Virus record (IMG/VR): IMGVR_UViG_3300036792_000363
Span: 60,774-124,773 of that record
Direction: 5' to 3' (one strand)
From: a virus
Length of the DNA stretch: 64,000 nucleotides
The notes under the pieces were generated by a model, which worked only from the letters and a program-made list of their open reading frames with translations, ran no database searches and was not told where the DNA came from. The position numbers were made by a program, and so were the translations under genes. This document shows positions 1,654-62,115 of the stretch, one piece after another. The first letter of the stretch is position 1. Every line of letters starts with the position of its first letter.

Positions 1654-1660
1654 TATTACG
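1654..1660 (-). promoter_or_regulatory. Class II phage promoter motif CGTAATA upstream of the yhhQ-queF-dpdA operon
   Basis: Matches recurring NGTA(G/A/T)TA motif; short leader with GGGAG SD follows. Confidence 0.55.
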
Positions 1661-1668
1661 GGCGAAGG

Positions 1669-2250
1669 TCAGATGCCCGGGTCCGTGGGGAAGCTCTGGG
1701 CGTTGACGTCGAAGAACTGCATGTCGAGCTGGTCGCGGTCGGCCGGGCCCACCAGGACCATCCGGCCCTCCTCGGGGTCCCACTTGATCCGCGCCAGGTC
1801 GTCCTTGGCGAAGTGCTCGAAGCCGGTGATCTGCCCGTAGAACACGCCGGCCAGGGACTGGCGCCGCGCCAGCCGCCGGATCGCCAGGTCGAACATGTCG
1901 ACCCCGGTCTTCTCCGACGTCACTTCGATCGCCTGCGCGTTGCGGGCCATCTCCTGGATCGGCTTGCTGTAGGAGTAGGACCCGATCTCCTCGGCCTGCA
2001 GCGGGTTGGCCATCACCTGCTGGTAGGGCCAGCGCAGGTACAGCCAGTCGGCCATCGCCATCACGCCCATGTTGGCGAGCAGCTGGTAGTCGGCGCTCAG
2101 CCCGCCGTAGTCGTCCGCCCCCAGCTCCGACAGGATCGTGAACATGATCGCGGCCTGCAGCAGCGCCGAGTTGGCGTACCCGGTGTAGCTGGTCACCGGC
2201 CGGCCAGAGTAGTTGGCAAGCTCGGCGACGGTGGGGACCGGCCAGGGCAT
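1669..2250 (-). CDS. Head-to-tail adaptor/connector protein
   Basis: N-terminal PTVAELANYSG and EEIGSYSYSK motif typical of head-completion proteins; downstream of capsid. Confidence 0.6.
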   Translation of the reverse strand: MPWPVPTVAELANYSGRPVTSYTGYANSALLQAAIMFTILSELGADDYGGLSADYQLLANMGVMAMADWLYLRWPYQQVMANPLQAEEIGSYSYSKPIQEMARNAQAIEVTSEKTGVDMFDLAIRRLARRQSLAGVFYGQITGFEHFAKDDLARIKWDPEEGRMVLVGPADRDQLDMQFFDVNAQSFPTDPGI

Positions 2251-2984
2251 CAGCCCTCCTGCCGCGCGAAGGCCAGCCGCGCCAGCTCGTGCCCCTCGTC
2301 GAGCACCAGCGCGCCGCCGTCAGCCCTGGCCGCCATGTGCTGCGCGTGCACCTGGCTGCCGACGTTGGCCCACAGCACCTGCACCCGGCCGTCGCCGCTG
2401 CCCCGCGCGCCCATCGGCACCACCGCTGCCTGGTGCCCTTCGGAGTCGGTGACGAACAGGTTGAAGTCGGCGCGCTTGAACGTCTCGATGTCGGTGATGG
2501 GCGTCGGGTAGTGGTGCACCCCGCCGCCGTGCGGCAGCACCCCCGAGTGCAGGCCCGCGGGCATCGGCACGCTGGCGTTGCAGATGCTGTCGGTCCACCT
2601 CGCGACCCCGGCCGCGTCCGTGATCGGGGCGGCCAGCAGGTCAGCGATCCCCAGTTCGCTCACCGCGCCGGGGAAGGCGGCGTACAGCCTGGACGCGTTG
2701 AGGCGAAGCTGGTCAACTCTGGACGGATCTGCGCAGAACTGGGCGCTCCACTCGATGCCGGCCAGGTTGCGGACGAAGAACCAGCCGCCGGAGTCCTTCA
2801 GCCACAGGCCGCCGCCGTGGTGGTCCTGGATGGGCGGCGGGCCGTAGTAGGTGCCGTCGCCGACCAGGTGGTGCAGCTCCGCCCGCGAGGCCTGGTACTC
2901 CGGGGAGTCGGTCCGGGGCGGGTGGTCGGGGATCTCGATGTCCCAGCCGTGGTCCTCGTGCTCGGTGTGGGTGCCCTCGCTCAT
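2250..2984 (-). CDS. His-rich conserved protein, DUF6424-like
   Basis: DHPPRTDSPEY, QDHHGGGLW, GIEWSAQFCADP, GVHHYPTP motifs recalled from actinobacterial DUF6424 proteins. Confidence 0.5.
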   Translation of the reverse strand: MSEGTHTEHEDHGWDIEIPDHPPRTDSPEYQASRAELHHLVGDGTYYGPPPIQDHHGGGLWLKDSGGWFFVRNLAGIEWSAQFCADPSRVDQLRLNASRLYAAFPGAVSELGIADLLAAPITDAAGVARWTDSICNASVPMPAGLHSGVLPHGGGVHHYPTPITDIETFKRADFNLFVTDSEGHQAAVVPMGARGSGDGRVQVLWANVGSQVHAQHMAARADGGALVLDEGHELARLAFARQEG

Positions 2985-2992
2985 GACCGTTG

Positions 2993-2998
2993 AATCGG
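2993..2998 (-). promoter_or_regulatory. Late promoter motif CCGATT, 8 nt before ATG 2984 (leaderless)
   Basis: Fixed N8 spacing shared with 8 other genes. Confidence 0.7.
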
Positions 2999-3008
2999 AG
3001 AGGCTTCG

Positions 3009-5518: not shown

Positions 5519-5526
5519 GCCGGTGC

Positions 5527-6295: not shown

Positions 6296-6490
6296 CCGGA
6301 AATGCAACGAGGGCCCGGTTCGAGTCCAGGCCCTCGTCCAAACAGGAAGAACAACTCCGAGAATGATGCTACCGGAAATCGGGAGGGACGGGTGGCGGCT
6401 CTGCCCGGACTGCGCCAGGCCAGCGTAGCGCCCGGCCCTCCCTCATTCCCGGTGCCGGGTTCGGCGAGGCCCGCGCCACGGCACATCGTC

Positions 6491-6497
6491 TAATACG
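6491..6497 (-). promoter_or_regulatory. Class II promoter motif CGTATTA
   Basis: Motif match just downstream of the capsid terminator. Confidence 0.45.
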
Positions 6498-6506: not shown

Positions 6507-6537
6507 GAAACCCCCGGGCCGACGAGGCCCGGGGGCT
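6507..6537 (-). terminator. Intrinsic terminator after major capsid gene
   Basis: CCCCCGGGCC-TCGTC-GGCCCGGGGG hairpin followed by TTT on minus strand. Confidence 0.75.
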
Positions 6538-6569: not shown

Positions 6570-7784
6570 CTAGTCGATCGGGCTGCCGGTGGTGCCCGCG
6601 CCGCCGTTGTAGTAGCCGGCCGGCGGGGTGTTGCCGTTGGTGATGATCCCGGTCGCCACCAGCATCTGCTCGGGCCGGGTGACGATCGGCAGCATGTGCC
6701 ACTCCAGCAGGTACTGGCGCGCCGACGGGTCCTTCTCTTTCCACGTCTTCGCGTACTTGCCGGTGAAGCCCTCCGGGGCCTCGTCGTCCGCGGTCGGCCC
6801 GATGAGCATCTCGACCGGCCGCTGGTCGGTGTAGTTGCCCATGTAGAGCTGGCCGTCAGGGACGAAGAACGTCAGGTTCCCGAGGTCGGACTCGAAGACC
6901 TGCTCCACCGTGTTCCAGGTGAGGCCCATGAACCCGGTCATGATGCCGGTCGAGTAGAACTCGTCCTTCATCCGGTCGCTCAGCATGGTGGCCGGGATGC
7001 TGACGGTGGACGCCTGCGTGGCGCTCACCCACGCCTCCATCAGGGCCGCCATCGTCACCGAGGTGGCGAACACCTCCTTGGCCGGCACGCGGCCGTGGAT
7101 CTGCAGCAGCCGCTTCCACGACCGGACGTCCTCGATCATCGACACCGGGGTGGCGTAGGTGATGGTGCCGCCGGAGGCGTTCAGCCTCGTGTTCGGCTGC
7201 CCGAGGGTGGACGCGCTGCCCGCCGCGCCGCTGTTGCCGCTCGCGCCGCCGGTGGTGTAGTAGCCGAGCGCGGTGTTCTCCACCCACGGCGTCGCCGGGG
7301 TGACGAAGTGGCTGCTCGGGAACTTGAAGTCGATCGTCGCCTGGATGTCGGCGTAGTTGTACTGGATCGCCCCGCCCAGGGCCTGCCAGCAGCTCCACTC
7401 GGCGAAGTTGTCGAACCGCTGGTTGATGTCGTTGATCTCGCGCAGCACCGCGCGCTCGGCGTTGATCTGGGCGATCTCGCCGGGGGTCCGCAGCCAGTGC
7501 AGGGTGGTCGGCTCGAAGACCTTCTTCTCGCGCAGGTAGATGAAGCTGGCGCTTTCCTGCGAGCGCCCGAGGCGGCTGATGATGTGCGCCTCGGAGTTGG
7601 GCACGTTCGGCTTGGCGACCGCGCGCGACCCCTTCACCACGTCCCAGGTGGCGGACGGGAAGGGCCACGGGGTCTGGTCAAGCCGGTTGAGCATGAGCAG
7701 CGTCTCGGGGGTCACGAACTTCTCGACCACGCCCCTCAAAACGACGGGTTCGAGTAGGCTGATGTCAGGAATCGCGTCCACCAC
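6570..7784 (-). CDS. Major capsid protein (lambda gpE / Phage_cap_E type)
   Basis: PDISLLEPVVLRGVVE, YLREKKVF, EWSCWQALGG, KTWKEKDPS, LPIVTRPE motifs; start uncertain (GTG 7784, GTG 7781 or ATT 7772). Confidence 0.85.
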   Translation of the reverse strand: MVDAIPDISLLEPVVLRGVVEKFVTPETLLMLNRLDQTPWPFPSATWDVVKGSRAVAKPNVPNSEAHIISRLGRSQESASFIYLREKKVFEPTTLHWLRTPGEIAQINAERAVLREINDINQRFDNFAEWSCWQALGGAIQYNYADIQATIDFKFPSSHFVTPATPWVENTALGYYTTGGASGNSGAAGSASTLGQPNTRLNASGGTITYATPVSMIEDVRSWKRLLQIHGRVPAKEVFATSVTMAALMEAWVSATQASTVSIPATMLSDRMKDEFYSTGIMTGFMGLTWNTVEQVFESDLGNLTFFVPDGQLYMGNYTDQRPVEMLIGPTADDEAPEGFTGKYAKTWKEKDPSARQYLLEWHMLPIVTRPEQMLVATGIITNGNTPPAGYYNGGAGTTGSPID

Positions 7785-17819: not shown

Positions 17820-17823
17820 GGAG

Positions 17824-17913
17824 CAGAGGAGGCGAGACTCGAACTCGCACGGGGGTTTCCCCCCTAACCGTTTTCGGGACGGCATCCGGTAGGCCAGCTC
17901 GGATTACTCCTCC
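17824..17913 (-). tRNA. tRNA-Ser(CGA), C33
   Basis: Long variable arm; loop CC-CGA-AA; G73. Confidence 0.85.
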
Positions 17914-21123: not shown

Positions 21124-21196
21124 TGGAGACGACGCGATTCGAACGCGCAACCGCTTCAGTGCGAGTGAAGTGCTCTACCAGCTGAGCTACATCCCC
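21124..21196 (-). tRNA. tRNA-Ala(CGC)
   Basis: Cloverleaf; G3:U70. Confidence 0.9.
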
Positions 21197-21618: not shown

Positions 21619-21625
21619 TATTACG
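21619..21625 (-). promoter_or_regulatory. Class II promoter motif CGTAATA, 6 nt before GTG 21612
   Basis: N6 spacing. Confidence 0.6.
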
Positions 21626-22278: not shown

Positions 22279-22310
22279 ACCATACCGCGCTTGCTTGACT
22301 CGTGTCAAGC
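22279..22310 (-). promoter_or_regulatory. Host sigma70-type promoter for the tRNA array (TTGACA-N18-TATGGT) with perfect palindromic operator GCTTGAC-TCGT-GTCAAGC (22293-22310) over the -35
   Basis: Direct sequence match. Confidence 0.75.
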
Positions 22311-25054: not shown

Positions 25055-25067
25055 GTCTACCAGCTCC

Positions 25068-28219: not shown

Positions 28220-28227
28220 GCCCTGGT

Positions 28228-28233
28228 AATCGG
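28228..28233 (-). promoter_or_regulatory. Late promoter motif CCGATT, 8 nt before GTG 28219
   Basis: N8 spacing. Confidence 0.7.
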
Positions 28234-33240: not shown

Positions 33241-36093
33241 TGTTAATACGCCCGCGGCGGGAAGGGCGGCGATGACCCGCCCCGCGGCCTCGTCGGCGCA
33301 GCGCGGGCACAGGCCCTCCGGCCAGGGCGCCCCCAGCAGGCTGACCGGCACCGGCGCGCCGCACCCGGCGCAGGCGCCGGCGCCGCCGGAGAAGAACTCC
33401 ACCCGGCGGGCGGTGTAGCGGGCCGCCTCGATCCAGCTGGGCCGCCCCATCAGCGCGGCGTAGGCCTGGTACGGCCCGATCCTGCCGTTCAGCACCATCC
33501 GCAGCACGATCCTGCGCCCGTCGCGGGCGACCCAGAAATCAGCGACGTGCTCCCTGGCGTCCCCGTGCTGCGCGGTGGCCCCCACGTAGAAGCTGTCGGC
33601 CCGCACCAGGACCGGCACCTCCTGCGCCTCCGCCCACCAGCGCAGCCGCGCCGCCACCTCGGCGGCGGGGTCGGCCACCTCCAGTTCCCACAGGCTGGCG
33701 GGGCGGGGCGGCAGCCGCGCGCCGGGCGGCAGCTCCCCGAACTCCCCGCGCCATTCCAGGTGCGGGGCAAGCTCGTCGCCGAACGCGGCCAGGAACCACG
33801 GCAGCCCGGCGTCGTCGCGGCGGGTGACGCCGAACTCGGCGTAGTCGGCGCCGGTGGACCGGTCCCGGTAGGCGGTGGAGCCCGACACCAGCCGGACGGT
33901 GGCGGGCGCGATGGGCGGGAACCCGGTCCGCTCGCACGCCCGGTAGGCGGCGCGGCGGATGATGAACGCCAGCGAGGAGTTGGAGACGAACCGGAACGCC
34001 TCCGGCCGCTCCACCCGCAGCCGCAGCTTCAGCGCCACGGTGGAGTGGTCGAGCGGGGTCACCGGGTCGGCCGCCAGGTCGCGGTCGGCGGCGGTCACGC
34101 GGTCCCGGCGGATCTCCAGGTCGCGGCGGTCGCACGCCCCGCACGCGTTCCCCTGGCAGCGCTGGTCGCAGCGGTCGACCCACTCGTTGCCGTGGTAGCC
34201 CTCGTCGCACAGGTCGTCGTAGGTGCCCGCGCTGGTGCCGGTGAGCAGGTCCACCATGTCGCGGTAAACCCGCCACATGAGGGACTTCTCCACGCCGGTG
34301 TCGATGTGCTCCCAGCCGAGCAGGTCGTGCTCGAACCGCTCGCCGAAGATGTCGGCCAGCCCGTTGCGGAACCCGCGGCCGATGAGGGCGGCGTCCAGCC
34401 GCTCGGGCGTGTCCTTGGGGAACCCGCCCCAGCTGGCGACGCCCAGGCCCTCGATCACGTCGACGATCGCCTCGCCCGCGTCCCGGCTGGCGCGCTGGCA
34501 CGCCTGGAAGAACGCCAGCTTGGCCGGGTTGGCCTTGCTGCCGATCTTCACCCAGATCCGGTGCTCGCGCAGCGCGTCGAACGCGGGCTGCAGCGAGTAG
34601 TCGGGCGGGGTCACCTCGAACCACTGCATCGGGGTCTGCGCCTCGATGAGCAGCGGCGTCCAGCTCATGATGATCTGCACGCCGGCCGCGTCGGGCCCGA
34701 AGCCGTCGCGGACGTCGGCCAGCCGCTTCCCCAGGTCCACGATCCGCATGACGTCGCGCTCGGTCTCGCCCGGCCAGTTGGTGATCATGTAGAGCTTCAC
34801 CTTGCGGATGCCGGCGCCGATGGCCTGGGCGACGGCGCGCACCACGTCCTCGTCGGAGGTGCCCTTCCCGGCCAGGTCCCGCATCAGCTGGCTGTTGCCC
34901 TCCAGCCCGAACGTGATGGCCTCGGTGCCGCCGATCTGCATCACCATCGACAGCTGGGGGTCGGCGGTGTAGTCGTCGATCCGCATGCTGGACGCGTTCA
35001 CCCGCCCGGTGACGTTCTCCAGCAGCCCCGCAATCAGTGCCTTTTTCAGCGTGTGCGCGGGCGGGTCGGGGGCCACCAGGGAGATCTCGGTCGAGCCCAT
35101 GTTCCGCCGCCACTTCCCGGCGCGGGCGATCGTCCGTTCCGGGTCCTCCTGCCGCTGCGGCTTGGTGACCCACCCGAGCTTGCAGAACACGCACCAGTTG
35201 TCGCAGCCGCGGGCCATCTCCACGTCGCCGGAGCCCATGCTCGGGTCGGAGAACAGCACCGGCGCCGACGTCATCAGGTCGGCGGCGTTGAGGTCGTGCA
35301 CCCGGCGGGCGCGGAACCGCGGCCCGACCCCGGGCACCAGCGGGTAGGAGCGCGAGACCATCTTCGTCGGCTCGGGCAGCCCGCGGTCCTCGTACCGGTA
35401 GGAGAACGCGGTGAAGCGCGGGAAGTACAGGAAGTTGAACTCGCGGGCGAGGGCCAGGTAGCAGCCCTCGCGGTCAGCCTGCCACGACCCGGCGCTCTTG
35501 AACTGCGCGATGCGCTCGCACACCGCGCCGATGCCGGGGTTGCCGGGCTCGTCCTCGGCCTCCCCCAGCCACACGCAGTCGACCACCGGGGCCATGAACT
35601 CGGGCGCGCAGTAGGCCAGCCCGCCGACCATGACCATGGGGTAGTCCTCGGCCCTGGCCTGGCGGTCCGCCCAGCGCAGGGGGACGCCGCTCATCGACAG
35701 GTACTTGCAGAAGTTGACCAGCAGCACCGTGTAGCTGATGGACGTGCCCACCACGTCGAAGTCGCGCAGCTGGCGCCTGCTCTCGATGCCGAACGCCGGG
35801 ACCTGGCCCTTCTCCAGCAGGTCCATGTCGCGCTGGGTGGCGGGCAGGTACCAGCGGTCGGCCAGGTTCCGCGGCCCCGCCTTGTGCACCGCGTCGTAGA
35901 TCACCGGCATGGCCATGTTGCCGGCCGCCTGGCTGTAGTCCCAGGACGCGGCCAGCAGGCAGCGCACGTCGGTGTGCTCCCACGACCGCCGCTCGGCGTT
36001 CGGCTCGGTGCCCAAAAATTGTCCGGGCCCATCAAATCTATATAGATTTGCGTCCAACCATCGAGCGATTGAATCTGGCGAGCGGCCTGCCAC
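33241..36093 (-). CDS. Radical SAM enzyme, TIGR03960-like domain fused to TIGR03936/DUF2344-like domain and C-terminal zinc ribbon (about 950 aa; frame stays open into dnaX)
   Basis: RGCDNWCVFCK (CxxxCxxC), FGIESRRQLRDFDVVGTS, KVKLYMITNWPGET, RFVSNSSLAFIIRRAAYRA. Confidence 0.8.
33244..33250 (-). promoter_or_regulatory. Class II promoter motif CGTATTA upstream of the dnaX operon
   Basis: Motif match. Confidence 0.55.
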
Positions 36094-39046: not shown

Positions 39047-39892
39047 TCAGCTACTACCGGCGGTGAGGGCGGCGCGCCCGGTGCGGCCGATGGGCGGCGC
39101 GAACTTGGGGCAGACGCGCTGCACGTCGCACCAGTCGCAGCCCTCGTCATCCGCTTTTGGGTGCACCCGGCCTGCCCAGATGTCGTGGGCGGTCCGCTCG
39201 ATCCGCCACGACATCTCCCGCACGGCCGTCATGCCGACGTCGAACGGCAGCACCTGCTCCGAGCACATGGGCTGGATGATGCCGGTCTTCACCGGCAGCC
39301 GTCCCCGCATCGCGGCCACCGCGATGGCGTAGAACGCCAGCTGCCCCAGCACCTTCTTGTAGTACTGGTCGTTCTGGGTCGCCTTCAGGTCCCAGACGAC
39401 GATGCGCCCCTGGCTGTCCTCCACCAGCAGGTCCATCTCGCCGATGAGGATGATCCCCCGCGGCTCGCCGTCCAGGCCGGTGATGGTGACCGGCACCTCG
39501 AACCGCCTCGCCGGGGTCCAGGTGAACGGCAGCGCGTACCGGTTGAGGATCTTCTCCAGCCGTTTGACCAGCTCGCGGCAGAACGCCAGCAGCTGCGCCC
39601 GGTCGTCGGCGTGCTTCCACTTGACGATCCCCTCTTTCGAGGGCTTGCTGCACTCGTCGAGCAGCTCCTCGATGTGCGCCAGCATCCACCCCGGGGGCGG
39701 CTCCTCGAACTCCAGCCAGCGCCGCATCGCCAGGTCGGTCGCGTTGCCGTGCACGAAGTTGCGGTTGTCGAACAGCGGGGACCGGTTCCCCCTGCGCAGG
39801 TCGTACTTGGCCGGGCACTCGTCATGGGTTCGCAGCCGGCTCCAGGACAGCCGCAGCGGCTTCGGCGCTTCCAGGACCGCCAGGTCGCTCAA
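39047..39892 (-). CDS. PD-(D/E)XK exonuclease (RecB/Cas4-like, Fe-S Cys)
   Basis: LSWSRL..HDECPAKY, GEMDLLVE...VWDLKAT, QLAFY, CDWCDVQRVC. Confidence 0.85.
   Translation of the reverse strand: MSDLAVLEAPKPLRLSWSRLRTHDECPAKYDLRRGNRSPLFDNRNFVHGNATDLAMRRWLEFEEPPPGWMLAHIEELLDECSKPSKEGIVKWKHADDRAQLLAFCRELVKRLEKILNRYALPFTWTPARRFEVPVTITGLDGEPRGIILIGEMDLLVEDSQGRIVVWDLKATQNDQYYKKVLGQLAFYAIAVAAMRGRLPVKTGIIQPMCSEQVLPFDVGMTAVREMSWRIERTAHDIWAGRVHPKADDEGCDWCDVQRVCPKFAPPIGRTGRAALTAGSS
39052..39058 (-). promoter_or_regulatory. Class II promoter motif GGTAGTA, 6 nt before ATG 39045
   Basis: N6 spacing. Confidence 0.65.
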
Positions 39893-40878: not shown

Positions 40879-40885
40879 TACTACG
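40879..40885 (-). promoter_or_regulatory. Class II promoter motif CGTAGTA, 6 nt before sbcD ATG
   Basis: N6 spacing. Confidence 0.65.
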
Positions 40886-41808: not shown

Positions 41809-41845
41809 CCGGACTCCCGCCTGCGAGGCAACACGACGCAGGGGG

Positions 41846-41851
41846 AATCGG
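41846..41851 (-). promoter_or_regulatory. Late promoter motif (G)CCGATT upstream of endolysin
   Basis: Motif match, short leader, GGGAG SD. Confidence 0.65.
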
Positions 41852-41855
41852 CCGG

Positions 41856-46434: not shown

Positions 46435-46441
46435 TAATACG
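46435..46441 (-). promoter_or_regulatory. Class II promoter motif CGTATTA upstream of SSB
   Basis: Motif; leader with AGGAG SD. Confidence 0.6.
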
Positions 46442-46658: not shown

Positions 46659-47165
46659 TCACGACTCCAGCGAGTGCAGCCAGGGCAGGAAGCTGTCCAG
46701 CGTGGTGAGCAGCTCCTTGCGGATGTCGCGCAGGCCGAAGAACGACGACCGCAGCGAGTCCTCGGCCTCCTCCACCCGGTCGAGCACGACCGCGGCGGCG
46801 CGCGCCTGCCTGCGCAGCGGCGAGGCCTTGATCCGGGCCCCCACCAGCCGGTCCTGCGCGCTCTCGAACTCGCGCGTGACCGCGCGCTCGGCCCGCCGGT
46901 TCAGCTCGGTGTCGTAGACCTCGTTCGCCTTGTCGTCCAGCCGCCGGTAGGCGCGCCGGACCCGGCGCTTGGCCCTGGCGATCTCCTGCACGAGCCCCTC
47001 GGCGGCGTCCAGCCGGGCGCGCAGCTCGCGCACCGCCTGGTGCACGTCGTCGGGCAGCGCGTCGTGCGGCGGGATCTCGAACTCGCGCAGCGTCCTCATG
47101 GCGGCCAGCGTCTGGTCGATCAGGGCGACCGTCTCCGGCTCCAGGCTCTCCAGGTCGTCGATCAC
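46659..47165 (-). CDS. Coiled-coil hypothetical protein (168 aa)
   Basis: Helical; GTGA coupling. Confidence 0.7.
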   Translation of the reverse strand: MIDDLESLEPETVALIDQTLAAMRTLREFEIPPHDALPDDVHQAVRELRARLDAAEGLVQEIARAKRRVRRAYRRLDDKANEVYDTELNRRAERAVTREFESAQDRLVGARIKASPLRRQARAAAVVLDRVEEAEDSLRSSFFGLRDIRKELLTTLDSFLPWLHSLES

Positions 47166-47527
47166 TGCGCTGCGGCCGCCTGCTGCGCCGCGCGGCGCTC
47201 CTCGGCCTCCGCCAGCGCCGCGGCGAGCGCGGGCACGTACTTGGCCAGCACCCGGTCGCGCCGGCCCCGGTGGAGCTTGATGCCAGCCTTCAGCTCGCCC
47301 TCCTCCACGGAGCCCCTCGGTGTCCAGGACAGGGCCAGGTAGGCCGTGAAAGACTGCAGCTCCTCGTCCATGGCCATAAGCACGTCGGAGGAGATCATGG
47401 CCGCCGACGTCTTCTCCGGGTCGTCGGCCCCCGCCTCGGCGAGCATCCGCAGCAAATCGGACTCCTCCACCATGGCGCTGACCTTGTTCCGGCCGAAGTC
47501 GGTGCTCACACCGCGCTGAACGTTCAT
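47162..47527 (-). CDS. Hypothetical protein (121 aa)
   Basis: TGTAGTA-N6-ATG start. Confidence 0.65.
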   Translation of the reverse strand: MNVQRGVSTDFGRNKVSAMVEESDLLRMLAEAGADDPEKTSAAMISSDVLMAMDEELQSFTAYLALSWTPRGSVEEGELKAGIKLHRGRRDRVLAKYVPALAAALAEAEERRAAQQAAAAQ

Positions 47528-47533: not shown

Positions 47534-47540
47534 TACTACA
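47534..47540 (-). promoter_or_regulatory. Class II promoter motif TGTAGTA, 6 nt before ATG 47527
   Basis: N6 spacing. Confidence 0.65.
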
Positions 47541-50245: not shown

Positions 50246-50252
50246 TACTACG
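50246..50252 (-). promoter_or_regulatory. Class II promoter motif CGTAGTA upstream of the polA operon
   Basis: Motif match. Confidence 0.6.
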
Positions 50253-50256: not shown

Positions 50257-51174
50257 TCACCACAGCGCCACGATGCTCTCGGCCAGCCCGACGGCCGCGC
50301 CGGAGCGCCAGGCGGAGTCGACCCGCGCCAGGACGGAGCGCAGCCGCTGCACCCGGGCCGGGTCGTAGGCGGCGGCATGCAGGGCGACCTTGCGCGGCAC
50401 GTACCGGTCGCGGCCGGGGTCGTCGCCGGACCGCTGGGCCTCGCGGACCTCGGCCATGGCGGTCAGCCGGTAGTCCAGCAGCCCGACCAGGGCCCCGACC
50501 TCGCCGCGCGGCACCTGCGCGGCCAGCGCCATCGCCCGCGCCCTGTCCCCGGCGGCGAGGGTGTCCGCCAGGTCCCCGATCGCGGCCTGCGGGCAGACCA
50601 GGGCCGCCCGCTCGGGCGTCGGCTCCAGCCCCGCGGCGGTGCCCTGGCGGCAGGCCTGCCAGGCGGCCTCCAGCGACCCGCAGCGGGCCAGCAGGTCGTA
50701 GGCGAGGACCGGCGTCATGCCGGGCCACCAGGAGGCCACCAGGGCCGCCCTGGCGTCGGCGGACGACGGGGCGCAGCAGCGCACCAGCTGCGCGTCCCGG
50801 GCGGACTGCAGCGCGGCCAGGTGCGGCGCCAGGCCGTCCTTGGTCTTGGCGAAGTCGCCCTCGGACGACACGAACACCGCCACCGAGGCGTCCAGGCCTT
50901 TCGCCTGCGCCAGGTCGACGAGGGCGTCCGGGTGCTTCAGCCTCTCCGCGCCGTAGATGACCGCCCGGCGCCCGCCCGGCGGCGGGTAGGTCAGCAGCGT
51001 GTCCCACATGGCGGTCTCCGGGCCCTCCCCGGCGAACCACGTGGCCAGCTGGGACGGCTGCGCCCCCTCGCGGTGCGCGGCCACCACCTCGCGGGCGAGG
51101 CAGGCCTCCCCGCCGCACACCCAGGTGAGCCTGCGGACGGTCGGGTTCTTGCGCCAGGTGCTGTAGGTCGCCAT
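50257..51174 (-). CDS. holA: DNA polymerase III delta-like clamp loader subunit
   Basis: TWVCGGE...REVV, RRAVIYGAERL, C-terminal LARVDSAWRSG collar; CGCAATA-N6-ATG. Confidence 0.65.
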   Translation of the reverse strand: MATYSTWRKNPTVRRLTWVCGGEACLAREVVAAHREGAQPSQLATWFAGEGPETAMWDTLLTYPPPGGRRAVIYGAERLKHPDALVDLAQAKGLDASVAVFVSSEGDFAKTKDGLAPHLAALQSARDAQLVRCCAPSSADARAALVASWWPGMTPVLAYDLLARCGSLEAAWQACRQGTAAGLEPTPERAALVCPQAAIGDLADTLAAGDRARAMALAAQVPRGEVGALVGLLDYRLTAMAEVREAQRSGDDPGRDRYVPRKVALHAAAYDPARVQRLRSVLARVDSAWRSGAAVGLAESIVALW

Positions 51175-51179: not shown

Positions 51180-51722
51180 CTATTGCGCCTGACGGAGTGT
51201 CCCCGTCTGGCGGGCGAGGGCGGCGATCATCCCCGGCGTGTAGCGCGCGCCCTCGGCCAGCTGCATCCGCCGGGTGGCCGGGCCCGCCTGCTCCAGTTCG
51301 GCGGCGATGTAGCGCTCGAACTCCAGCCTGGTCAGCGCCGCCCACCGCGGCCCGTTCGGCCCGGCGAAGCTGCTGATGGACTCGATCAGGTGGTTGACCC
51401 GGGCGTGCACCAGGAAGAACGGGTCGGGCGCGGCTCCCTGCGCGGCCAGTTCGGCGAACTTTCCCTGGTTCGCCTGGACCAGCTGCTCGAACTCGGCCTG
51501 GATCACCTCAAGGGAGGGGGTGACCTTCGGCGGGGCGATGCGGCCCTCCTGGGACGGGCCCGTGATCCCCTGCGGGTGCTGCTGGATGTCGGGCGCCGCC
51601 GGGCCGGGCGTCTCGGTGCGGATGACGCGGCGGGTCCTGCGCGGGATGCCGTCGGGCTGCTGGCTCAAGGTGACTCCTCGGGGAGAGATTCGACCCCTCC
51701 CCAATCGCCAGATCCGGCGCAA
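51180..51722 (-). CDS. Hypothetical protein
   Basis: Open frame; start may be GTG near 51671. Confidence 0.6.
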   Translation of the reverse strand: MRRIWRLGRGRISPRGVTLSQQPDGIPRRTRRVIRTETPGPAAPDIQQHPQGITGPSQEGRIAPPKVTPSLEVIQAEFEQLVQANQGKFAELAAQGAAPDPFFLVHARVNHLIESISSFAGPNGPRWAALTRLEFERYIAAELEQAGPATRRMQLAEGARYTPGMIAALARQTGTLRQAQ

Positions 51723-52400: not shown

Positions 52401-52593
52401 CGGTCTTCTCCTCGTCTGTCACAGCCCAGAACTTCCAGTAGCCGCCCCGGGTGCGGCCGGCGTGGATGAGCGCGTCCGGGTGCCCGTTGTCCCAGTGACC
52501 CGGGCGCTGCTCGCACCGGGCGGTCGAGCGCTTCGACGGCCACGTGCCACACGTCGGCGGCGGCTCAGGCGCTGACTCGATCGTGATCTTCAA
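52390..52593 (-). CDS. Small Cys/His protein (67 aa)
   Basis: TC...RCEQRPGH...H pattern. Confidence 0.5.
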   Translation of the reverse strand: MKITIESAPEPPPTCGTWPSKRSTARCEQRPGHWDNGHPDALIHAGRTRGGYWKFWAVTDEEKTGDA

Positions 52594-53659
52594 CGGCGGC
52601 CACCTCCGCCACGTCCTCCTCGGCGAGCACCGACTGGATGACGGTGAGCAGGAACGAGGTCTTGGACTCGCTGGCGCCGGGCATCCGCGACAGGATGGCC
52701 TGCAGCGCGCCCCACATGCGGGCGTCGAAGATCCGGACCGGGGCCTCGGGCTCGCGGTCGACCAGCAGCTCCAGGCCGTAGATGAGCGCCGCCTTCACCC
52801 CGCCGAAGTGGCCGCCCGGGTAGTGGCCGCCTTTCGGCACCCGGCACTCGGGGTGCTGCGCCTGCACCTTGCGGGCGAACGCGATATACCAGGTCTTGCC
52901 GGCGCCGGCGAGCGGGTGCCCGGCGTCGATGAAGGCCGGCAGCACCCGGTTGCCGGGCGCGGCCTTCAGCGCGGTCACGGCGGCGCGCACCTGCTCGGCC
53001 GACAGCACCATGCCGCCAAGGTCGAACCGGCGCGGGTCGGTGATCTCCCTCAGCGCCGCGCGCAGCTCCGCGTACAGGGCGGTCGCGTCGTCCCGGCCGA
53101 GCCCCAGCTGGCCGCGCACTCCCGCCGCGGTGACGGTCTCGCCCGCCGCGTACCGGGCGGTCACCGCGTCGAACATGGCCGCCAGCGGCGGGCTGCCGGG
53201 CTCCGCCTCGCGCGCCGCCAGCTGCCCGCGCAGGCGGTCCAGCACCTCGCTGTCGCCCAGCGACGGGTAGTCCTCCCACTGGCCGGGAAGCCGGTCCACC
53301 CAGCGGCCGCCGGACTCCTCGTCCCCGGACGCGTCGGCGTCGTACGACACCTCGCGGCGCTTGCGGGCCAGCCGGTCGCGCAGCCCCTTGCCGTAGGCGG
53401 CGACCTTGCTCAGCATGTACGCCCTGAACGTCACCGTCTTGCCGGTGAACTCGCTCAGGTGGCCCGCGTCGTACTTGGCGATGATGTCGTTCTGGATGAA
53501 CTGGCCGAGAATGTACTGCACGCCGTCGTCGGCGTCGGCCTCCAGGGCGTCAGGGCCGAGGGCCCGCCAGACCACCCGCTTTATGACCGGCCCGTACTCC
53601 CGGAACAATTCGTCGTAGTCGGCCGGGGCCGCGCAGACAGCTGTATTCGGAGACGCCAC
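52565..53659 (-). CDS. Sigma-70 region 2-containing (ECF-like) transcription factor with C-terminal extension
   Basis: YDELFREYGPVIKRVV...DADDGVQYI...TFRAYM...LRDRLARKRRE region-2 pattern; HTH-like segment later; GGGGAG SD. Confidence 0.6.
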   Translation of the reverse strand: MASPNTAVCAAPADYDELFREYGPVIKRVVWRALGPDALEADADDGVQYILGQFIQNDIIAKYDAGHLSEFTGKTVTFRAYMLSKVAAYGKGLRDRLARKRREVSYDADASGDEESGGRWVDRLPGQWEDYPSLGDSEVLDRLRGQLAAREAEPGSPPLAAMFDAVTARYAAGETVTAAGVRGQLGLGRDDATALYAELRAALREITDPRRFDLGGMVLSAEQVRAAVTALKAAPGNRVLPAFIDAGHPLAGAGKTWYIAFARKVQAQHPECRVPKGGHYPGGHFGGVKAALIYGLELLVDREPEAPVRIFDARMWGALQAILSRMPGASESKTSFLLTVIQSVLAEEDVAEVAAVEDHDRVSA

Positions 53660-53711
53660 GTAGAACTCCCCACGAAATTACCTCACCAGGTAGGCCGAAG
53701 CCTAGCCCTGT

Positions 53712-53729
53712 GCTTGACCGTAGTCAAGC
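53712..53729. promoter_or_regulatory. Perfect palindromic operator GCTTGAC-CGTA-GTCAAGC in the leader of the ECF-like sigma gene
   Basis: Identical arms to 22293 copy; GGTAGTG class II-like motif at 53737-53743 upstream. Confidence 0.65.
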
Positions 53730-55016: not shown

Positions 55017-55024
55017 AGCTGATG

Positions 55025-55324
55025 CTACGACGCGAGCGCAGCCGGCTCCCGGGAAACCGCGGCCTTGGCCTCGGCGGCCTGGGCGCGCTCCGCGGCGGCC
55101 TGCTGCGCGGCCCTCTGCTCGGCCAGCAGCCTGTCCACCTCGTCCCTGGAGACGAGGTAGGCGGCCGGGCGCTTGTCCGGGTCCGAGCCCGGCACATAGC
55201 ACAGCGACGTCAGCTTGCCCGACTCAGCGCGCTGGAACATGCTCTGCCGCGAGATTTTCAGCTCCATGCCCGCCTCGGGCAGGGTGAGCCAGCCTTTGAT
55301 GTGCGGGCAGTCGATCTTCTTCAT
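55025..55324 (-). CDS. Excisionase/MerR-like helix-turn-helix protein
   Basis: WLTLPEAGMELKISRQSMFQRAESGKL...YLVSRDEVDRL; GAGGAGGA SD. Confidence 0.8.
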   Translation of the reverse strand: MKKIDCPHIKGWLTLPEAGMELKISRQSMFQRAESGKLTSLCYVPGSDPDKRPAAYLVSRDEVDRLLAEQRAAQQAAAERAQAAEAKAAVSREPAALAS

Positions 55325-55356: not shown

Positions 55357-55374
55357 GCTTAACCCAAGTCAAGC
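55357..55374. promoter_or_regulatory. Palindromic operator copy GCTTAAC-CCAA-GTCAAGC over the -35 (TTGACT) of the HTH gene promoter
   Basis: One mismatch to perfect palindrome. Confidence 0.6.
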
Positions 55375-58053: not shown

Positions 58054-58584
58054 CTACTCCGCCAGGCGGAAGGCCCTGAGAGGGTGCCCGGGGTCGAACG
58101 CGGCCCGGTTGCCGGCGACGCCGGTGAGGATAACCTTCATGCCTACTGCTACGTCCGGCACGCCGGCGACCGTCTCGTAGCGCAGCACCTGCTCGGTCTC
58201 GGCGATCTTGCCCACGTCCGGCACCACGTCCCCGGCCGCCACCTCGTCGGCGCGGCACTGCGTCCAGGCGCGGCCGTGGCGGTCGAGCGAGATCCGCTCG
58301 CGGCGGAACGGGGCCGGCAGCACCCGGCGGGTGGACGGCACCCGCGGCAGGTGCTCGCCGTCGAAGGTGATCCGCGACGCGGCCTCCGCCTTGGTGATGG
58401 GCACCATGTCCTGCTCGCGCACCGTGGCGGCCGCGTCGGTGTTCCGGGCGATCTCCTCCAGCACCGGCTCGGAGATGAACGCCTCCATCGGCGGGGCGGG
58501 CCCGTTCCCGGCGTAGTACCGGTCGACGTCCCTGCCGAGGGAGTCAGGTATCTCCAGGATGTGGCCCGGCTTGTCGTCGCTCAA
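58054..58584 (-). CDS. Hypothetical protein (176 aa)
   Basis: TTG start with GGGAGG SD; CCGATC late-like motif at 58612-58617. Confidence 0.65.
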   Translation of the reverse strand: MSDDKPGHILEIPDSLGRDVDRYYAGNGPAPPMEAFISEPVLEEIARNTDAAATVREQDMVPITKAEAASRITFDGEHLPRVPSTRRVLPAPFRRERISLDRHGRAWTQCRADEVAAGDVVPDVGKIAETEQVLRYETVAGVPDVAVGMKVILTGVAGNRAAFDPGHPLRAFRLAE

Positions 58585-58996: not shown

Positions 58997-59130
58997 CGGG
59001 CCCACCAGGACCGGTGCGTGACCCGGCCGCGCGGGTAGAACTGCACCCTCCGGCGGCACTGCGAGCACACCCAGCGCCTGCGCCGGTAGCTCCAGACCGC
59101 GAACGCCCGGTGCGGGATGAGCAGCCACAC
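58993..59130 (-). CDS. 45-aa basic zinc-ribbon peptide (WVCSQC)
   Basis: Coupled to sigma gene stop. Confidence 0.45.
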   Translation of the reverse strand: MWLLIPHRAFAVWSYRRRRWVCSQCRRRVQFYPRGRVTHRSWWAR

Positions 59131-59825
59131 TAGGCCACCGCCTTCATCATCGCGGTGTGGATCTCCAGCACCGCCCTCTGGTGAAGCCTGACGGCCTCGT
59201 CCTCTGATACGCCGATGACGTCCGCCACCTCCTGCACGGTCATACCGTGGTAATAGCGCAGCACCAGGATGATACGGGACGCCTCGCCCAGCCGCGCAAT
59301 CACTCCCATCACGGCGGCCAGCACCTCCGACACCACCGCCGACCCCTCCACGTCGTCGGCGCCGGCCACGTCGTGCGGCTCGGCGTCGAAGCTTACCGGG
59401 CGGGCCGACACCGCGGCCATCGTCTCGCGGATGTCGGCGACGCTGATGCCGGTGGCGGCCGACAGCTCCGCCTCGCTCAGCCCGCGGTCCTGGCCGGCCG
59501 CGCGCAGCGCCTTCGACCTGGTGCGGGCGCTGCGGGTCACCCAGTCCTGGCTGCGCAGCCAGTCGAGCATCGAGCCCCGCATCCTGCGCAGCGCGTAGGC
59601 CGGGAAGAACTGGTAGGCGGTCGGGTCGTGCCCGTTCTTCTCGCAGTACACGAGCCACCTCGCGGCCGCGGCGGCCAGGCCCGACAGCGCCAGCGACTCA
59701 AGCTCGTCCATCTCCAGGACGTGCGGGGCCCGCTGCCACACCTTGTAGGCCTCGGCCCGCGCCTGGGGCATGATCTCCGCCACCAGTTCGTTGATGCGCG
59801 CGCGAACGGCGTCGTCGTCACTCAT
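59130..59825 (-). CDS. RNA polymerase sigma factor, FliA/WhiG (sigma28) family
   Basis: FFPAYALRRMRGSMLDWLRSQDWVTRS (region 2.3-2.4), LSEAELSAATGIS (3), LVLRYYHGMTVQEVADVIGVSE...RLHQRA (4). Confidence 0.9.
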   Translation of the reverse strand: MSDDDAVRARINELVAEIMPQARAEAYKVWQRAPHVLEMDELESLALSGLAAAAARWLVYCEKNGHDPTAYQFFPAYALRRMRGSMLDWLRSQDWVTRSARTRSKALRAAGQDRGLSEAELSAATGISVADIRETMAAVSARPVSFDAEPHDVAGADDVEGSAVVSEVLAAVMGVIARLGEASRIILVLRYYHGMTVQEVADVIGVSEDEAVRLHQRAVLEIHTAMMKAVA

Positions 59826-60009
59826 CCTGTCTGACTTCGGCCCGGGCGGGCTCGTCCTGCTCGACTTCGACCCGGGCGGGGCGGACGACGGCATCAATCT
59901 CGGCGCGGGGGATCCCGCAGTGCTCGGCCACCCGCTGGTCGTCCCAGTCCCGGTGGACGCGGATGGTGCGCTTGGCGGCCAGGAACCACTCAACTCGGCT
60001 TGACGGCAT
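59818..60009 (-). CDS. Small protein co-transcribed with the sigma gene (63 aa)
   Basis: ACGATT-N8-ATG start; overlaps sigma start. Confidence 0.6.
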   Translation of the reverse strand: MPSSRVEWFLAAKRTIRVHRDWDDQRVAEHCGIPRAEIDAVVRPARVEVEQDEPARAEVRQDE

Positions 60010-60017
60010 GCCGTCGG

Positions 60018-60023
60018 AATCGT
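60018..60023 (-). promoter_or_regulatory. Late promoter motif ACGATT in front of the sigma28-like operon (possible autoregulation)
   Basis: N8 spacing. Confidence 0.6.
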
Positions 60024-60055: not shown

Positions 60056-61774
60056 TTACGCGGCGGCGGCCTCCCCGCGCACCGGCTCCAGGCGGCCGGT
60101 GGCGATCAGGCGCAGCATCTGCCGCGGGGTGAGCTGCGCGAAGGTGTTGGCCTGCTCGTCCCACACCGCGTCCGACATGACGCCCTCGCGGCGCAGCATC
60201 GACAGGAACGCCTCCTCCAGGGTGCCCGCCGCCAGCAGGTGCAGCAGGTACACCGTCGGGTAGGGGCTGCCGACCCGGCGCACCCGGCCGAACAGCTGCT
60301 CCATCCCCTGCACGTTGAGGATGGTGTCGACCGCGATCAGGTACCGCGCCACCTGCAGGTTGAGGCTGGTCTGGATGGTGGTGGTGCCGACCAGCACACG
60401 GCACGCCGGGTCGTAGCGGAACGCCTCCAGGCGGCGCTGCCGCTCGCGCTTGTCGGTCTCCTGCGACCACATGAGCACGTGCCCGACCCCGGCCGCGGTC
60501 AGCCGGGCCGACAGGGCCGCCACATTCGGCCTGAAGCCGACGTAGCAGACCACCTTCTCCTCCGCCAGGTCCCCGGTGACCTCGCGCATCGCCCAGTCGA
60601 GCTTGGCGCTGTCGTCGAGCGCCACCCCGTCCAGGGTGGCCAGGCCCGAGCAGACCTGGCGGGCGCGGGTGAACGCCGCGCCGGCCTGCGCGCGGGTGAT
60701 CTCCACCCCGCCGTCGGCCCGCAGCCGCCGCAGCACGCCGTCGGACAGCTCCCGGTACCGGGTGCGCTGCCGCGGGCTCAGGTCGACCATGACGGGGGTG
60801 TACTGCACCTGCGGCAAGGTCACGTCGTCGCCGAAGTCGGACGCGGTGCGCCGCAGCACCAGCGGGGCCACCTTCCGGCGGAACTCCGCCAGCCGCGCCG
60901 GGTTGGAGGTGATCCCGTTGTTCGGCTGGACGACGCGCGACATCGCCGTGCGGCCTCTCCTGTCGCGCGGGTCGGCGGTGACGATGACCCGGCGCTCGGC
61001 CGCCTCGTACTTGCTCAGCATCCAGTCGAGCGACCCGAGCGCGGCCTCCCCGCCGGCCGGCTCCAGCATCCCCCACAGGTCGCGCAGCTGCTTCTGCAGC
61101 GGGGTGGCGTGCGCGCCGTGCACCCGCGTGCACCGGGAGGCCAGCCGGTTGACCGCGATGGCGGTCTTCGACTCAGGGTTGCGCATCGGGTCCACGTCGT
61201 CGTAGACGAGGATCCCGATGTCCAGCTGCATCAACAGCTCGATGTCGCCCTCGCGCCTCGCCTTGCGGCCCTCCGCCGGGGCGAGGGTGCGGTCGGAGAC
61301 GACCGCCACCTCCCAGTCGCCCAGGTAGCCGCGGACCCGGCTGTCGCGGTCCCCATCGGCGATGAGCACCTTCAGGCCGGGGGTGAGGCGCTTCAGCTCG
61401 TTCGCCCACGGGTCGTGCACCGCGGCGGCCTTGGTGACGATGACCGCCCGGTTGCGGGGCCCAAGCTCCCCGTTCTGCTTGCACATCGCCAGCATCAGCA
61501 GGATCTGGGCCGTCTTGCCCGAGCCCACCGTGTCGCCCAGCAGGCCGGGCAGGCCGTAGTACATCCACGCCGCGCCGATCCGCTGGTGGGCGCGGGGCAT
61601 GATGCCGCACCGGCGGCACAGGATGTCCAGCTGCTCGTGCCGGGCGCACGGGGCGGTATTGAACCACTCCAGTTCAGGCCAGGGGTCGATGTCCTTCTGC
61701 TGGCGGATGCTCCAGGCAGCGCGGCGGCGGGCCTCCGTGGAGAGGCCCGCCGCGTCGCGCAGAGGGGTCGTCAC
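60056..61774 (-). CDS. SNF2-family helicase/ATPase
   Basis: LLGDTVGSGKT, YDDVD (motif II), HATPLQ..L.DLW.ML, LRRT, SLNLQVA, QLFGRVRRVG. Confidence 0.85.
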   Translation of the reverse strand: MTTPLRDAAGLSTEARRRAAWSIRQQKDIDPWPELEWFNTAPCARHEQLDILCRRCGIMPRAHQRIGAAWMYYGLPGLLGDTVGSGKTAQILLMLAMCKQNGELGPRNRAVIVTKAAAVHDPWANELKRLTPGLKVLIADGDRDSRVRGYLGDWEVAVVSDRTLAPAEGRKARREGDIELLMQLDIGILVYDDVDPMRNPESKTAIAVNRLASRCTRVHGAHATPLQKQLRDLWGMLEPAGGEAALGSLDWMLSKYEAAERRVIVTADPRDRRGRTAMSRVVQPNNGITSNPARLAEFRRKVAPLVLRRTASDFGDDVTLPQVQYTPVMVDLSPRQRTRYRELSDGVLRRLRADGGVEITRAQAGAAFTRARQVCSGLATLDGVALDDSAKLDWAMREVTGDLAEEKVVCYVGFRPNVAALSARLTAAGVGHVLMWSQETDKRERQRRLEAFRYDPACRVLVGTTTIQTSLNLQVARYLIAVDTILNVQGMEQLFGRVRRVGSPYPTVYLLHLLAAGTLEEAFLSMLRREGVMSDAVWDEQANTFAQLTPRQMLRLIATGRLEPVRGEAAAA

Positions 61775-61780
61775 CCTGGT

Positions 61781-61787
61781 TACTACA
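61781..61787 (-). promoter_or_regulatory. Class II promoter motif TGTAGTA, 6 nt before GTG 61774
   Basis: N6 spacing. Confidence 0.65.
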
Positions 61788-61792
61788 CCCTG

Positions 61793-62011
61793 CTAGTCGA
61801 ACTCGCTGCCGGAGTCGTCGTCTTCGTCCTCGTCGTCGCCCATCTCCTCGGTGGGGTCGACGTCGGAGTCCCCCAGGATCCACTGCAGGGTGTCGTAGAC
61901 GGCCGAGGCCACCTCGTCATCCTGGCCGCTGTCCTCGGCGTCGAACGCCGCCTTCTGGGCCCGCGCTCGGGCCTCGCTGATCTCTTCCGCGGTGCGCGCT
62001 ACTGCTGCCAT
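61793..62011 (-). CDS. Small acidic protein (72 aa)
   Basis: GAGGAG SD; D/E-rich tail. Confidence 0.65.
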   Translation of the reverse strand: MAAVARTAEEISEARARAQKAAFDAEDSGQDDEVASAVYDTLQWILGDSDVDPTEEMGDDEDEDDDSGSEFD

Positions 62012-62108
62012 GGCTGTCTCCTCGGTCGGGCCGGCTCGGTGAGGATGCCGCGTGCCGTGGCCTTCCGGCCCGCAGGCCGGCGATCCGTGGGATAGGTCAT
62101 CCGCCCTC

Positions 62109-62115
62109 TACTACG
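62109..62115 (-). promoter_or_regulatory. Class II promoter motif CGTAGTA
   Basis: Motif match upstream of 62011 gene. Confidence 0.55.

Follow-up and report, generated by a model that had tools for sequence, protein, structure and literature searches.

The stretch of DNA analysed here (the window, 64,000 nucleotides) comprises bases 60774-124773 of a 124,773-bp IMG/VR record (IMGVR_UViG_3300036792_000363; completeness estimate 82%), whose source is a large uncultured phage of soil actinobacteria. In this window the hexamer GTA(G/A/T)TA (GTADTA) precedes genes of the coding strand, in many cases by exactly six bases (N6), and this regularity is confirmed. The hexamer most likely marks replication and DNA-modification genes as members of a phage-specific promoter class that is independent of a -35 element. 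We consider it very probable that GTADTA is a promoter element and, granted that, a little more probable still that a phage sigma factor reads it; the two statements as a whole are somewhat better than evenly probable, and the full chain in which the reader is the protein encoded at 52565-53659 (sigma-B) stays slightly below an even chance. In the proposed mechanism, GTADTA would be the -10-region element (-12 to -7) of a class without a -35 element, and RNA polymerase would start 6-7 bases past it. At about two-thirds of the sites the start base would be the A or G of the start codon, yielding a leaderless mRNA; at the remaining sites the transcript would open with a 20-90-nt leader and a normal ribosome-binding site, and one site would give rise to a structured non-coding RNA. 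The class would drive a "middle" programme of replication, recombination, DNA-modification and homing-nuclease genes, together with the operon that includes the gene of a WhiG-like late sigma. Sigma-B, a putative divergent extracytoplasmic function (ECF)-like sigma with an extra C-terminal domain, would be made early from a host-type promoter and read the class.

We found 27 copies of GTADTA in the window, where 4.3 are expected. The 14 copies on the + strand are TAC-TAC (Tyr-Tyr) codons of genes on the - strand, and all 13 copies on the - strand lie at gene junctions. GTADTA-N6-RTG occurs seven times, always on the - (coding) strand, whereas 100 dinucleotide shuffles average 0.10 and never exceed 2; this bears out the enrichment foreseen in an earlier reading of the sequence (the original prediction). 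Across the whole genome, ATG or GTG stands at exactly N6 after 11 of the 19 coding-strand copies (ATG in eight; GTG in three, including the site of the non-coding RNA), the other spacings from N3 to N9 have 0-1 copies each, and the opposite strand has none at N6. Six further sites in the genome head leaders, mostly with ribosome-binding sites. A motif-blind search for hexamers at fixed offsets upstream of the starts of open reading frames (ORFs) ranked GTAGTA at -12 first (7 versus 0.03 expected) and CGATTA at -13 second. One-mismatch hexamers are nearly absent at N6, and five of the six positions are thus almost invariant.

A by-product of composition and stop codons, that is, of AT-rich words between the genes of a genome with 72% G+C, has a negligible probability. 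AT-rich words are indeed expected to gather in intergenic DNA, GTAGTA contains TAG, and at 47534-47539 this TAG is the stop codon of polA. However, the shuffles fall far below the observed count, the phase peaks at N6 only, one-mismatch versions hardly occur there, and the hexamer at 39052-39057 is written inside a gene, at the 3' end of a nuclease gene, as the rare codons GGT AGT AGC followed by TGA. The layouts at 39052-39057 and 47534-47539 show that the hexamer is positioned from the downstream start and not from the upstream stop. In addition, the proteins of the relatives are roughly 30-60% identical, yet the hexamer is kept at orthologous sites. As far as sequence statistics reach, this explanation is refuted.

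Nearly every gene of the genome (G000 in our labelling) is on the - strand, and an array of 34 tRNAs is present. According to Pfam, replication and recombination genes span about 29-62 kb of the window, including those for an SNF2 helicase, a DnaB helicase, clamp-loader subunits, DNA polymerase A, the beta clamp, a Mre11-like phosphoesterase, a PD-(D/E)XK nuclease and a WhiG-like sigma, with a GH25 endolysin gene embedded among them. For comparison we used IMG/VR records reached via homologues of sigma-B (G001-G005) or via an alignment of the WhiG-like sigma (G006 and G007), and a metagenome scan added 22 loci (96 kb). Neither a 10-kb megablast query nor tblastn with sigma-B or the phage's ECF sigma had a match in 50,697 phage records; cultured phages are only distant, with DNA polymerase identities of at most 33%. 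The sites in the window are as follows.

62109..62114, - strand: GTAGTA with a leader; predicted +1 near 62102, about 90 nt to the ATG at 62011, ribosome-binding site GAGGAGA.
61793-62011, - strand: ORF downstream of the 62109 site.
61781..61786, - strand: GTAGTA-N6-GTG(61774), heading the operon of the SNF2 helicase gene (60056-61774), a 63-aa ORF and the gene of the WhiG-like sigma.
55023..55028, - strand: GTAGCA-N6-ATG(55016), a variant and doubtful member, which can also be read as host-type TAGCAT-N5-ATG.
51181..51186, - strand: GCAATA-N6-ATG(51174), a weakened variant before a 305-aa gene (50257-51174).
50246..50251, - strand: GTAGTA with a leader of about 20 nt, before a 55-aa ORF (ATG 50219) and the gene of DNA polymerase A (47536-50055).
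47534..47539, - strand: GTAGTA-N6-ATG(47527), heading a 121-aa gene (47162-47527); its first TAG is the polA stop codon.
46435..46440, - strand: GTATTA with a leader of about 31 nt and ribosome-binding site AGGAGA, before a 420-aa gene (ATG 46397).
40879..40884, - strand: GTAGTA-N6-ATG(40872), heading the genes of the Mre11-like phosphoesterase and the PD-(D/E)XK nuclease; conserved in G001 and G004.
39052..39057, - strand: GTAGTA-N6-ATG(39045), heading an 82-aa ORF and the beta-clamp gene; also present at this junction in G001 and G004.
33244..33249, - strand: GTATTA with a leader, before a zinc-ribbon ORF (32828-33217) and dnaX; GTATTA retained in G001 and G004.
21619..21624, - strand: GTAATA-N6-GTG(21612), before an HNH-like gene (21196-21612) inside the tRNA array.
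6491..6496, - strand: GTATTA-N6-G(6484), 12 nt after an intrinsic terminator (6508-6536), heading a non-coding RNA.
6300..6484, - strand: structured RNA with its 5' hairpin starting at the predicted +1 and a terminator of its own (6300-6338).
1654..1659, - strand: GTAATA with a leader of about 25 nt and ribosome-binding site GGGAGA, before a VUT transporter/7-deazaguanine module (ATG 1622).
118..123, - strand: GTAGTA-N6-ATG(111), before an 85-aa gene.

The original prediction had placed a heptamer (the hexamer and one preceding base) exactly 6 nt before the start codons at 21612, 39045, 40872, 47527 and 61774, and hexamers heading leadered operons at 1654, 33244, 46435, 50246 and 62109; all five positions in each group are exact. 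Two sites in the window, 118-123 and 6491-6496, are additional to its list. The first has a twin, GTAGTA-ACGGGC-ATG, 266 bases onward and outside the window, before an SLOG gene, and the other half of the genome, outside the window, contains six more sites. The site proposed at 51174 is a plausible weakened member, as its orthologue has GTAGTA-N6-ATG in G006 (GCAGTA-N6-ATG in G004). The one proposed at 55016 is ambiguous: GTAGCA replaces GTAGTA upstream of SNF2 in G004, but the site also reads as TAGCAT-N5-ATG, and the orthologues in G001 and G004 have a ribosome-site-like GGTGA instead of the hexamer. We rejected 53737 (GGTAGTG), which had been named as the head of an operon: it belongs to the region of a stop codon, and the host-type promoter TTGACT-17-TAGGCT (53699-53727) follows shortly downstream. 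Also rejected was GTAGCA-N6-ATG at 58147-58152, which lies inside the gene 58054-58584 and is conserved as coding sequence. The GGTAGTT variants listed at 17978 and 19440 are possible members that lie outside the detected tRNAs; elsewhere in the tRNA arrays, GTAGTT mostly belongs to the D-arm of a tRNA. About 60 nt downstream of GGTAGTT 17978 we noted a tRNA-Ser(cga) (17823-17910, - strand) that ARAGORN detects only at a lowered threshold (-ps80).

Alignment of 45 sites from three phages gave the consensus t-N2-gGC-GTAGTA-r-N2-Gg-c-(A/G)TG, in which GGC usually directly precedes the hexamer. C stands before GTA at 37 of the 45 sites, corresponding to a CGT-type -10. Over the same sites, a -35 element is missing: the information content is about 0 bits at each position from -45 to -9, and no 4-mer or 5-mer is enriched. 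With no -35 information in 45 sites, this is not a two-block ECF promoter. The original prediction had compared the class with promoters of ECF sigmas and stated that SigW of Bacillus subtilis reads CGTA, which is correct (TGAAAC-N16-CGTA; PMC5758882); a CGT-type -10 is present here, and a two-block layout is not.

The same prediction had distinguished the class from the host -10 (TANNNT), and this holds. The base after the hexamer is T at one of the 45 sites and no register yields TANNNT, so that the class does not show the host HrdB-type -10, TANNNT 6-7 nt before the start site. This bears on whether the hexamer might be read by a host sigma, either an alternative one or HrdB redirected by a phage co-factor, with no phage sigma involved, which we regard as quite improbable. 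In its favour, phages that redirect the host sigma are known, and phage proteins that act on the host polymerase include AsiA and MotA of T4. Redirection of host polymerase by a phage protein is also described for gp79 of phiEco32 (PMC12276001). Against a host sigma, the hexamer has neither the conserved T nor the conserved A positions of TANNNT, the phage uses consensus TTGAC-N17-TANNNT for host transcription, every relative has kept two or more sigma-like genes of its own, and the motif differs between phage lineages (GTAGTA-N6 versus GTAGCA-N5).

No usable ribosome-binding site is present at any of the 11 N6 sites, in contrast to the leadered genes of the window, four out of five of which have a Shine-Dalgarno sequence (GGGAGA, AGGAGA, GAGGAGA and GGGGAGAAG). 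This split is as expected for a start 6-7 nt past the hexamer, where we infer that transcription begins. The N6 sites therefore have the layout of leaderless promoters, with a fixed 6-7 nt to the start codon and no ribosome-binding site. At 6491-6496, N6 reaches the base with which pairing begins in a structured RNA some 130-185 nt long, and the would-be ORF at this position has only 13 codons. We predicted 39 base pairs in this RNA, three of them with compensatory changes, and it is conserved in three phages (the studied genome, G001 and G004). An Rfam search with the RNA at 6300-6484 matched no family. It consists of the 5' hairpin and a long GGGAGGG/CCCUCCC hairpin, of which CCCUCCC resembles an anti-Shine-Dalgarno sequence.

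Because 6491-6496 leads into a structured RNA and not into a gene, a purely translational role of the hexamer is argued against, and the non-coding case and the leadered sites together argue against a role in RNA processing. That the hexamer instead acts on RNA, by marking a processing site or a translation signal in polycistronic transcripts, is accordingly very improbable, although many sites are in same-strand gaps of 1-18 nt where read-through is likely. At six sites the start codon is 20-90 nt away, with a normal ribosome-binding site in between, and one site follows a terminator. Moreover, the fixed 6-base distance fits the -10-to-start geometry of RNA polymerase and not known ribonucleases, and we know of no obvious complementarity of GUAGUA to the 3' tail of 16S rRNA.

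GTADTA-N6-RTG is strand-biased and enriched in G001-G006. Among the coding-strand hexamers, N6-RTG follows 10 of 19 in G001, 6 of 14 in G004 and 14 of 26 in G006; in the last, all 14 are on the forward strand and none on the reverse, and the reversed control pattern occurs 0 and 3 times. The 22 metagenome loci added eight coding-strand sites (seven N6, one N5), with none on the other strand at those spacings. Orthologous junctions keep the hexamer while their flanks diverge, as seen for the SNF2 gene, the gene after polA, Mre11, an HNH-like gene, the SLOG gene and the 420-aa gene. At the SNF2 junction the relatives have GTAGTA (G001), GTAGCA (G004) and GTAATA (G006), and the hexamer at 46435 is retained in G001 and G004 although the leader sequence diverges. 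The 47527 site is conserved in G001 and G004 as well, and G007 has GTAGCA-N5-ATG at the same junction. G007, 100% complete by estimate, has no GTADTA-N6 sites. Its top fixed-offset hexamer is GTAGCA-N5-RTG, found at 7 sites, one of them at the polA junction.

The genes that carry the hexamer extend beyond replication. The original prediction had described a regulon of replication genes, and replication genes are indeed headed by the hexamer; in addition, we found it before the 7-deazaguanine/VUT module, the SLOG gene, two HNH-like genes and the non-coding RNA. The two HNH-like genes (window 21196-21612, - strand, and genome 39987-40676; lowered third-position G+C, 0.70 and 0.79) resemble homing endonucleases by Cys/His motifs. 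For 21196-21612 the name derives from these motifs in the translation, and Pfam gives a weak helix-turn-helix match only. Both carry GTA(A/G)TA-N6 starts, and they are probably mobile genes that adopted the phage promoter.

We distinguished two further promoter classes in the genome. The early arm is dominated by the consensus host-type promoter TTGACT-N17-TAGACT with a TTGAC...GTCAA palindrome, and host-type promoters are likewise found ahead of the tRNA array and the sigma-B gene. A CGATT-N8-RTG class is present at 61 sites in five phages. It has no -35 information and no TAAA block, though its presumed reader is WhiG/FliA-like. Both phage-specific classes appear to depend on a -10-region element alone, and GGC directly before the start codon is common to both. 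Two features concern the WhiG-like sigma.

59130..59825, - strand: sigma-C, a WhiG/FliA-like sigma, downstream of GTAGTA 61781-61786 in the same operon.
60007..60022, - strand: late-type site CGATT-N8-ATG before the 63-aa ORF and the sigma-C gene; conserved.

Through the second of these, the late sigma may exert positive feedback on its own gene. The classes track function and not position: DNA-modification genes amid virion genes (VUT/7-deazaguanine at 1654-1659; SLOG) carry GTAGTA, and the endolysin gene, embedded among replication genes, has a CGATT site. Such mutual embedding supports separate regulation of the two classes. A cascade from host sigma to sigma-B, then to the GTAGTA class including the WhiG-like sigma, and then to the CGATT late class is plausible from the arrangement of genes and sites, and its order is coherent in all relatives examined. 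Further CGATT sites were seen, e.g., at 41809-41855 and 28220-28234 of the window. An early-type palindromic core (TTGACACGAGTCAA; 22295-22308, - strand) heads the 34-tRNA array, which is thus probably transcribed early. Within the replication block lies another early-type -35/palindrome (GCTTGACTTGGGTTAAGC; 55357-55374, - strand), upstream of a 99-aa gene (55025-55324). A phage RNA polymerase is not indicated: neither of the two giant ORFs (2702 and 2077 aa) matches a Pfam family, a result that does not by itself argue against one.

Sequence models find two sigma factors in the genome, a 193-aa ECF sigma and the FliA/WhiG-like sigma-C. The candidate reader is a third protein, and the features relevant to the choice between it and the ECF sigma are these.

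52565..53659, - strand: sigma-B, 364 aa; sigma2 at residues ~8-97, sigma4-like part at ~130-212, conserved C-terminal domain at 215-364.
53699..53727, - strand: host-type promoter of the sigma-B gene, TTGACT-N17-TAGGCT, with palindrome TTGACTACGGTCAA.
Genome 6831-7412 (outside the window; L001:1147-1728:-), - strand: canonical ECF sigma, 193 aa, TIGR02937 56 bits.

Sigma-B matched no Pfam family, and a profile search of PDB sequences gave nothing. Its homologues number 64, and the contigs that carry them reach 153 kb; two of the homologues bear the Joint Genome Institute (JGI) label sigma-24, and Sigma70_r2 matched marginally in only 2 of 58 (E 0.047). The original prediction had suggested a structure check, in which the lack of a sigma fold would have counted against it; sigma2 and sigma4 folds are predicted. 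In an AlphaFold model with a mean predicted local distance difference test (pLDDT) score of 85, residues 8-97 match the sigma2 of SigK (Z 8.4, root-mean-square deviation 2.2 A over 77 residues), and residues 130-212 match region 4 of SigR (Z 6.3), the sigF chain 8jzt_A (Z 6.1) and region 4 of sigmaE (Z 5.7). Sigma factors dominate the matches in three independent structure libraries, and the top Foldseek matches among PDB and viral models are almost all sigma factors, with weak E-values. Sigma-B thus stays below the curated cut-offs of the sigma-70/ECF sequence models and shows a sigma2-then-sigma4 fold in the predicted model; on the strength of that model it is most likely a divergent ECF-like sigma. 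The C-terminal domain (residues 215-364, window 52565-53014) contains GNRVLP, GKTWY and GGHxxGGHFGxVK motifs; His248, Trp257, Tyr258, His279 and His284 are invariant in it. Predicted alone, it gave short helical-hairpin matches only (Z at most 5.5) and no informative fold. TTGAC-N17/18-TANNNT precedes the sigma-B gene in five phages (the studied genome, G001, G004, G006 and G007), and since the gene lies behind this conserved host-type promoter, sigma-B is probably made early.

The same class could instead be read by the canonical ECF sigma, with sigma-B having another role, which we consider unlikely. The ECF sigma is bona fide, exceeding the TIGR02937 cut-off (56 versus 42.9 bits) and matching Pfam Sigma70_r2 and r4_2. 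Many ECF sigmas read a CGT-type -10, such as the CGTA of SigW (PMC5758882), and C-GTA is present at 37 of the 45 sites. Its gene, in the early arm, is placed behind a leaderless host-type promoter, TAGCAT-N6-GTG, which is conserved in G001 and G004 and would allow early synthesis, and it is found in every complete phage with GTAGTA-N6. In G006, the ORF of the ECF sigma has 454 aa. A fourth class of the two-block form AAC-N15-18-CGT, considered for the ECF sigma, was rejected, with one conserved match only, upstream of a TraR-like region. There, at genome ~24950-25124 (outside the window), we noted the SigR/SigH-like two-block motif GGGAAT-N18-GTT; its counterpart in the relatives is GGGAAC-N17-CGTT (G001 coding-strand 900; G004 coding-strand 108173), and the motif overlaps a host-type promoter with a GTAC palindrome.

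Against the ECF sigma as the reader, the AAC-type -35 that ECF promoters normally require is absent, and G007 is informative. This genome has sigma-B (E 1e-75) and the WhiG-like sigma; searches by protein and by family, and a profile search run with a positive control, found no canonical ECF sigma in it, and its only other sigma4-like match is a plain helix-turn-helix protein. G007 nevertheless keeps the related GTAGCA-N5 class at orthologous junctions, which favours sigma-B as the reader. The sigma-B of G007 is the most diverged (32% identity, tblastn), and in this genome the motif shifts along with it; no such change is seen in the CGATT class or in its sigma, which is better conserved. The reader is therefore probably 52565-53659 and not the canonical ECF sigma.

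Several observations weigh against this assignment or against the wider scheme. Sigma-B scores 15.6 bits with TIGR02937, where the cut-off is 42.9, and its structural scores are middling (Z at most 8.4; Foldseek E 0.02 or worse). The gene of the ECF sigma, too, has a host-type promoter, and a separate regulon for this sigma was not found. The link to sigma-B comes from one lineage, G007, in which motif and spacing also differ. The CGATT class lacks a -35 element despite a normal region 4 in its sigma, so that a missing -35 is not specific to sigma-B; an acidic sigma4 helix, and hence no -35, as a criterion for the reader was dropped for this reason. The "middle" timing is inferred from gene functions and gene order, and the sole public run that contains the stretch is a DNA run.

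Temporal control by phage sigmas has been studied extensively in E. coli and Bacillus phages, and in the literature searched we found no account of it in actinophages; nothing relevant came up on a phage promoter GTAGTA or on sigmas that phages encode in Streptomyces. The studied genome combines a single element, no -35 and a divergent candidate phage sigma, as expected of a -10-only phage-sigma promoter, and sigma-B reaches only Z 5.8-5.9 in fold comparison with gp36 and gp55. By analogy, the closest described system is that of phiEco32, whose sigma gp36, with the co-factor gp79, reads a single AATGTA element centred at -11.5 in middle and late promoters (PMC12276001). Both systems have a divergent phage sigma with sigma2- and sigma4-like domains and one -10-region element without a -35 hexamer, and both leave early genes to the host sigma; the gp36 chain 9m7y_F is among the fold matches of sigma-B (Z 5.8). 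Unlike in phiEco32, the element here is GTAGTA at -12 to -7 with the predicted start on the start codon and hence leaderless mRNAs, the sigma has an extra 150-residue C-terminal domain, no gp79-like partner was identified, and a WhiG-like sigma follows in the proposed cascade. The two sigmas have no detectable sequence relation.

T4 late promoters have TATAAATA at -10 and no -35, and are read by gp55 with gp33 and the gp45 clamp; the structure 7d7d is listed among the fold matches of sigma-B. The likeness lies in a -10-only class, a divergent phage sigma and a tie to the replication phase. In contrast, gp55 comprises just a sigma2-like part and depends on the sliding clamp, whereas nothing here implies clamp dependence; T4 also differs in its AT-rich element and leadered mRNAs. 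SPO1 has a temporal cascade of host sigma A, then gp28, then gp33/34, and it too is a system where each gene class encodes the sigma of the next; its promoters have -35 and -10 blocks, however, its mRNAs are leadered and its proteins are unrelated. ECF systems such as SigW share the C-G-T-A start of the -10 (37 of 45 sites) and the ECF-like two-domain fold of the candidate reader, but they are two-block with an AAC-type -35, and the conserved stretch here extends 3 bases past CGTA. Leaderless genes of Actinobacteria have TANNNT 6-7 nt before the start codon, and leaderless mRNAs of Streptomyces prefer AUG (PMC4895711). The layout of -10, 6 nt and start codon, the lack of a ribosome-binding site and the preference for ATG are the same here, whereas GTAGTA lacks the conserved T and A positions of TANNNT. 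With the same geometry and a different hexamer, GTAGTA is a private version of the host layout, and the phage's own ECF sigma gene uses the exact host form (TAGCAT-N6-GTG).

One side observation concerns the sequence around the 33244 site. A single open frame of 1475 codons (31666-36093, - strand) joins a radical-SAM enzyme to DnaX. Judged by third-position G+C, the junction at ~33240-32830 codes in another frame, which holds the zinc-ribbon ORF 32828-33217. In G001 and G004, a TAA triplet (frame unspecified) lies ~25-30 nt upstream of the 33244 hexamer, and the studied genome has no such stop. The 1475-codon frame could represent read-through, fusion or a sequencing error.

The genome presents a readable three-step programme (host-type, GTAGTA, CGATT), in which each step apparently makes the next sigma and both phage-specific classes are built for leaderless mRNAs. 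We propose tentatively, at somewhat less than an even chance, that a clade of 125-150-kb actinophages encodes an undescribed sigma family that co-evolves with its promoter, with two private -35-independent classes that both set transcription starts on the start codon. Members of this family would combine ECF-like sigma2/sigma4 with a His/Trp-rich C-terminal domain and read GTAGTA-N6 in most lineages and GTAGCA-N5 in one. If true, this would add a new sigma family with an extra domain, a natural case in which the -10-to-start-site distance shifted by one base, and a test case for sigma function without -35 contacts. The compact 6-base elements and their matching sigmas might serve as orthogonal expression parts for Streptomyces-like high-G+C hosts, and for the uncultured phage clade itself the hexamers would provide a simple annotation rule for gene starts and transcription units.

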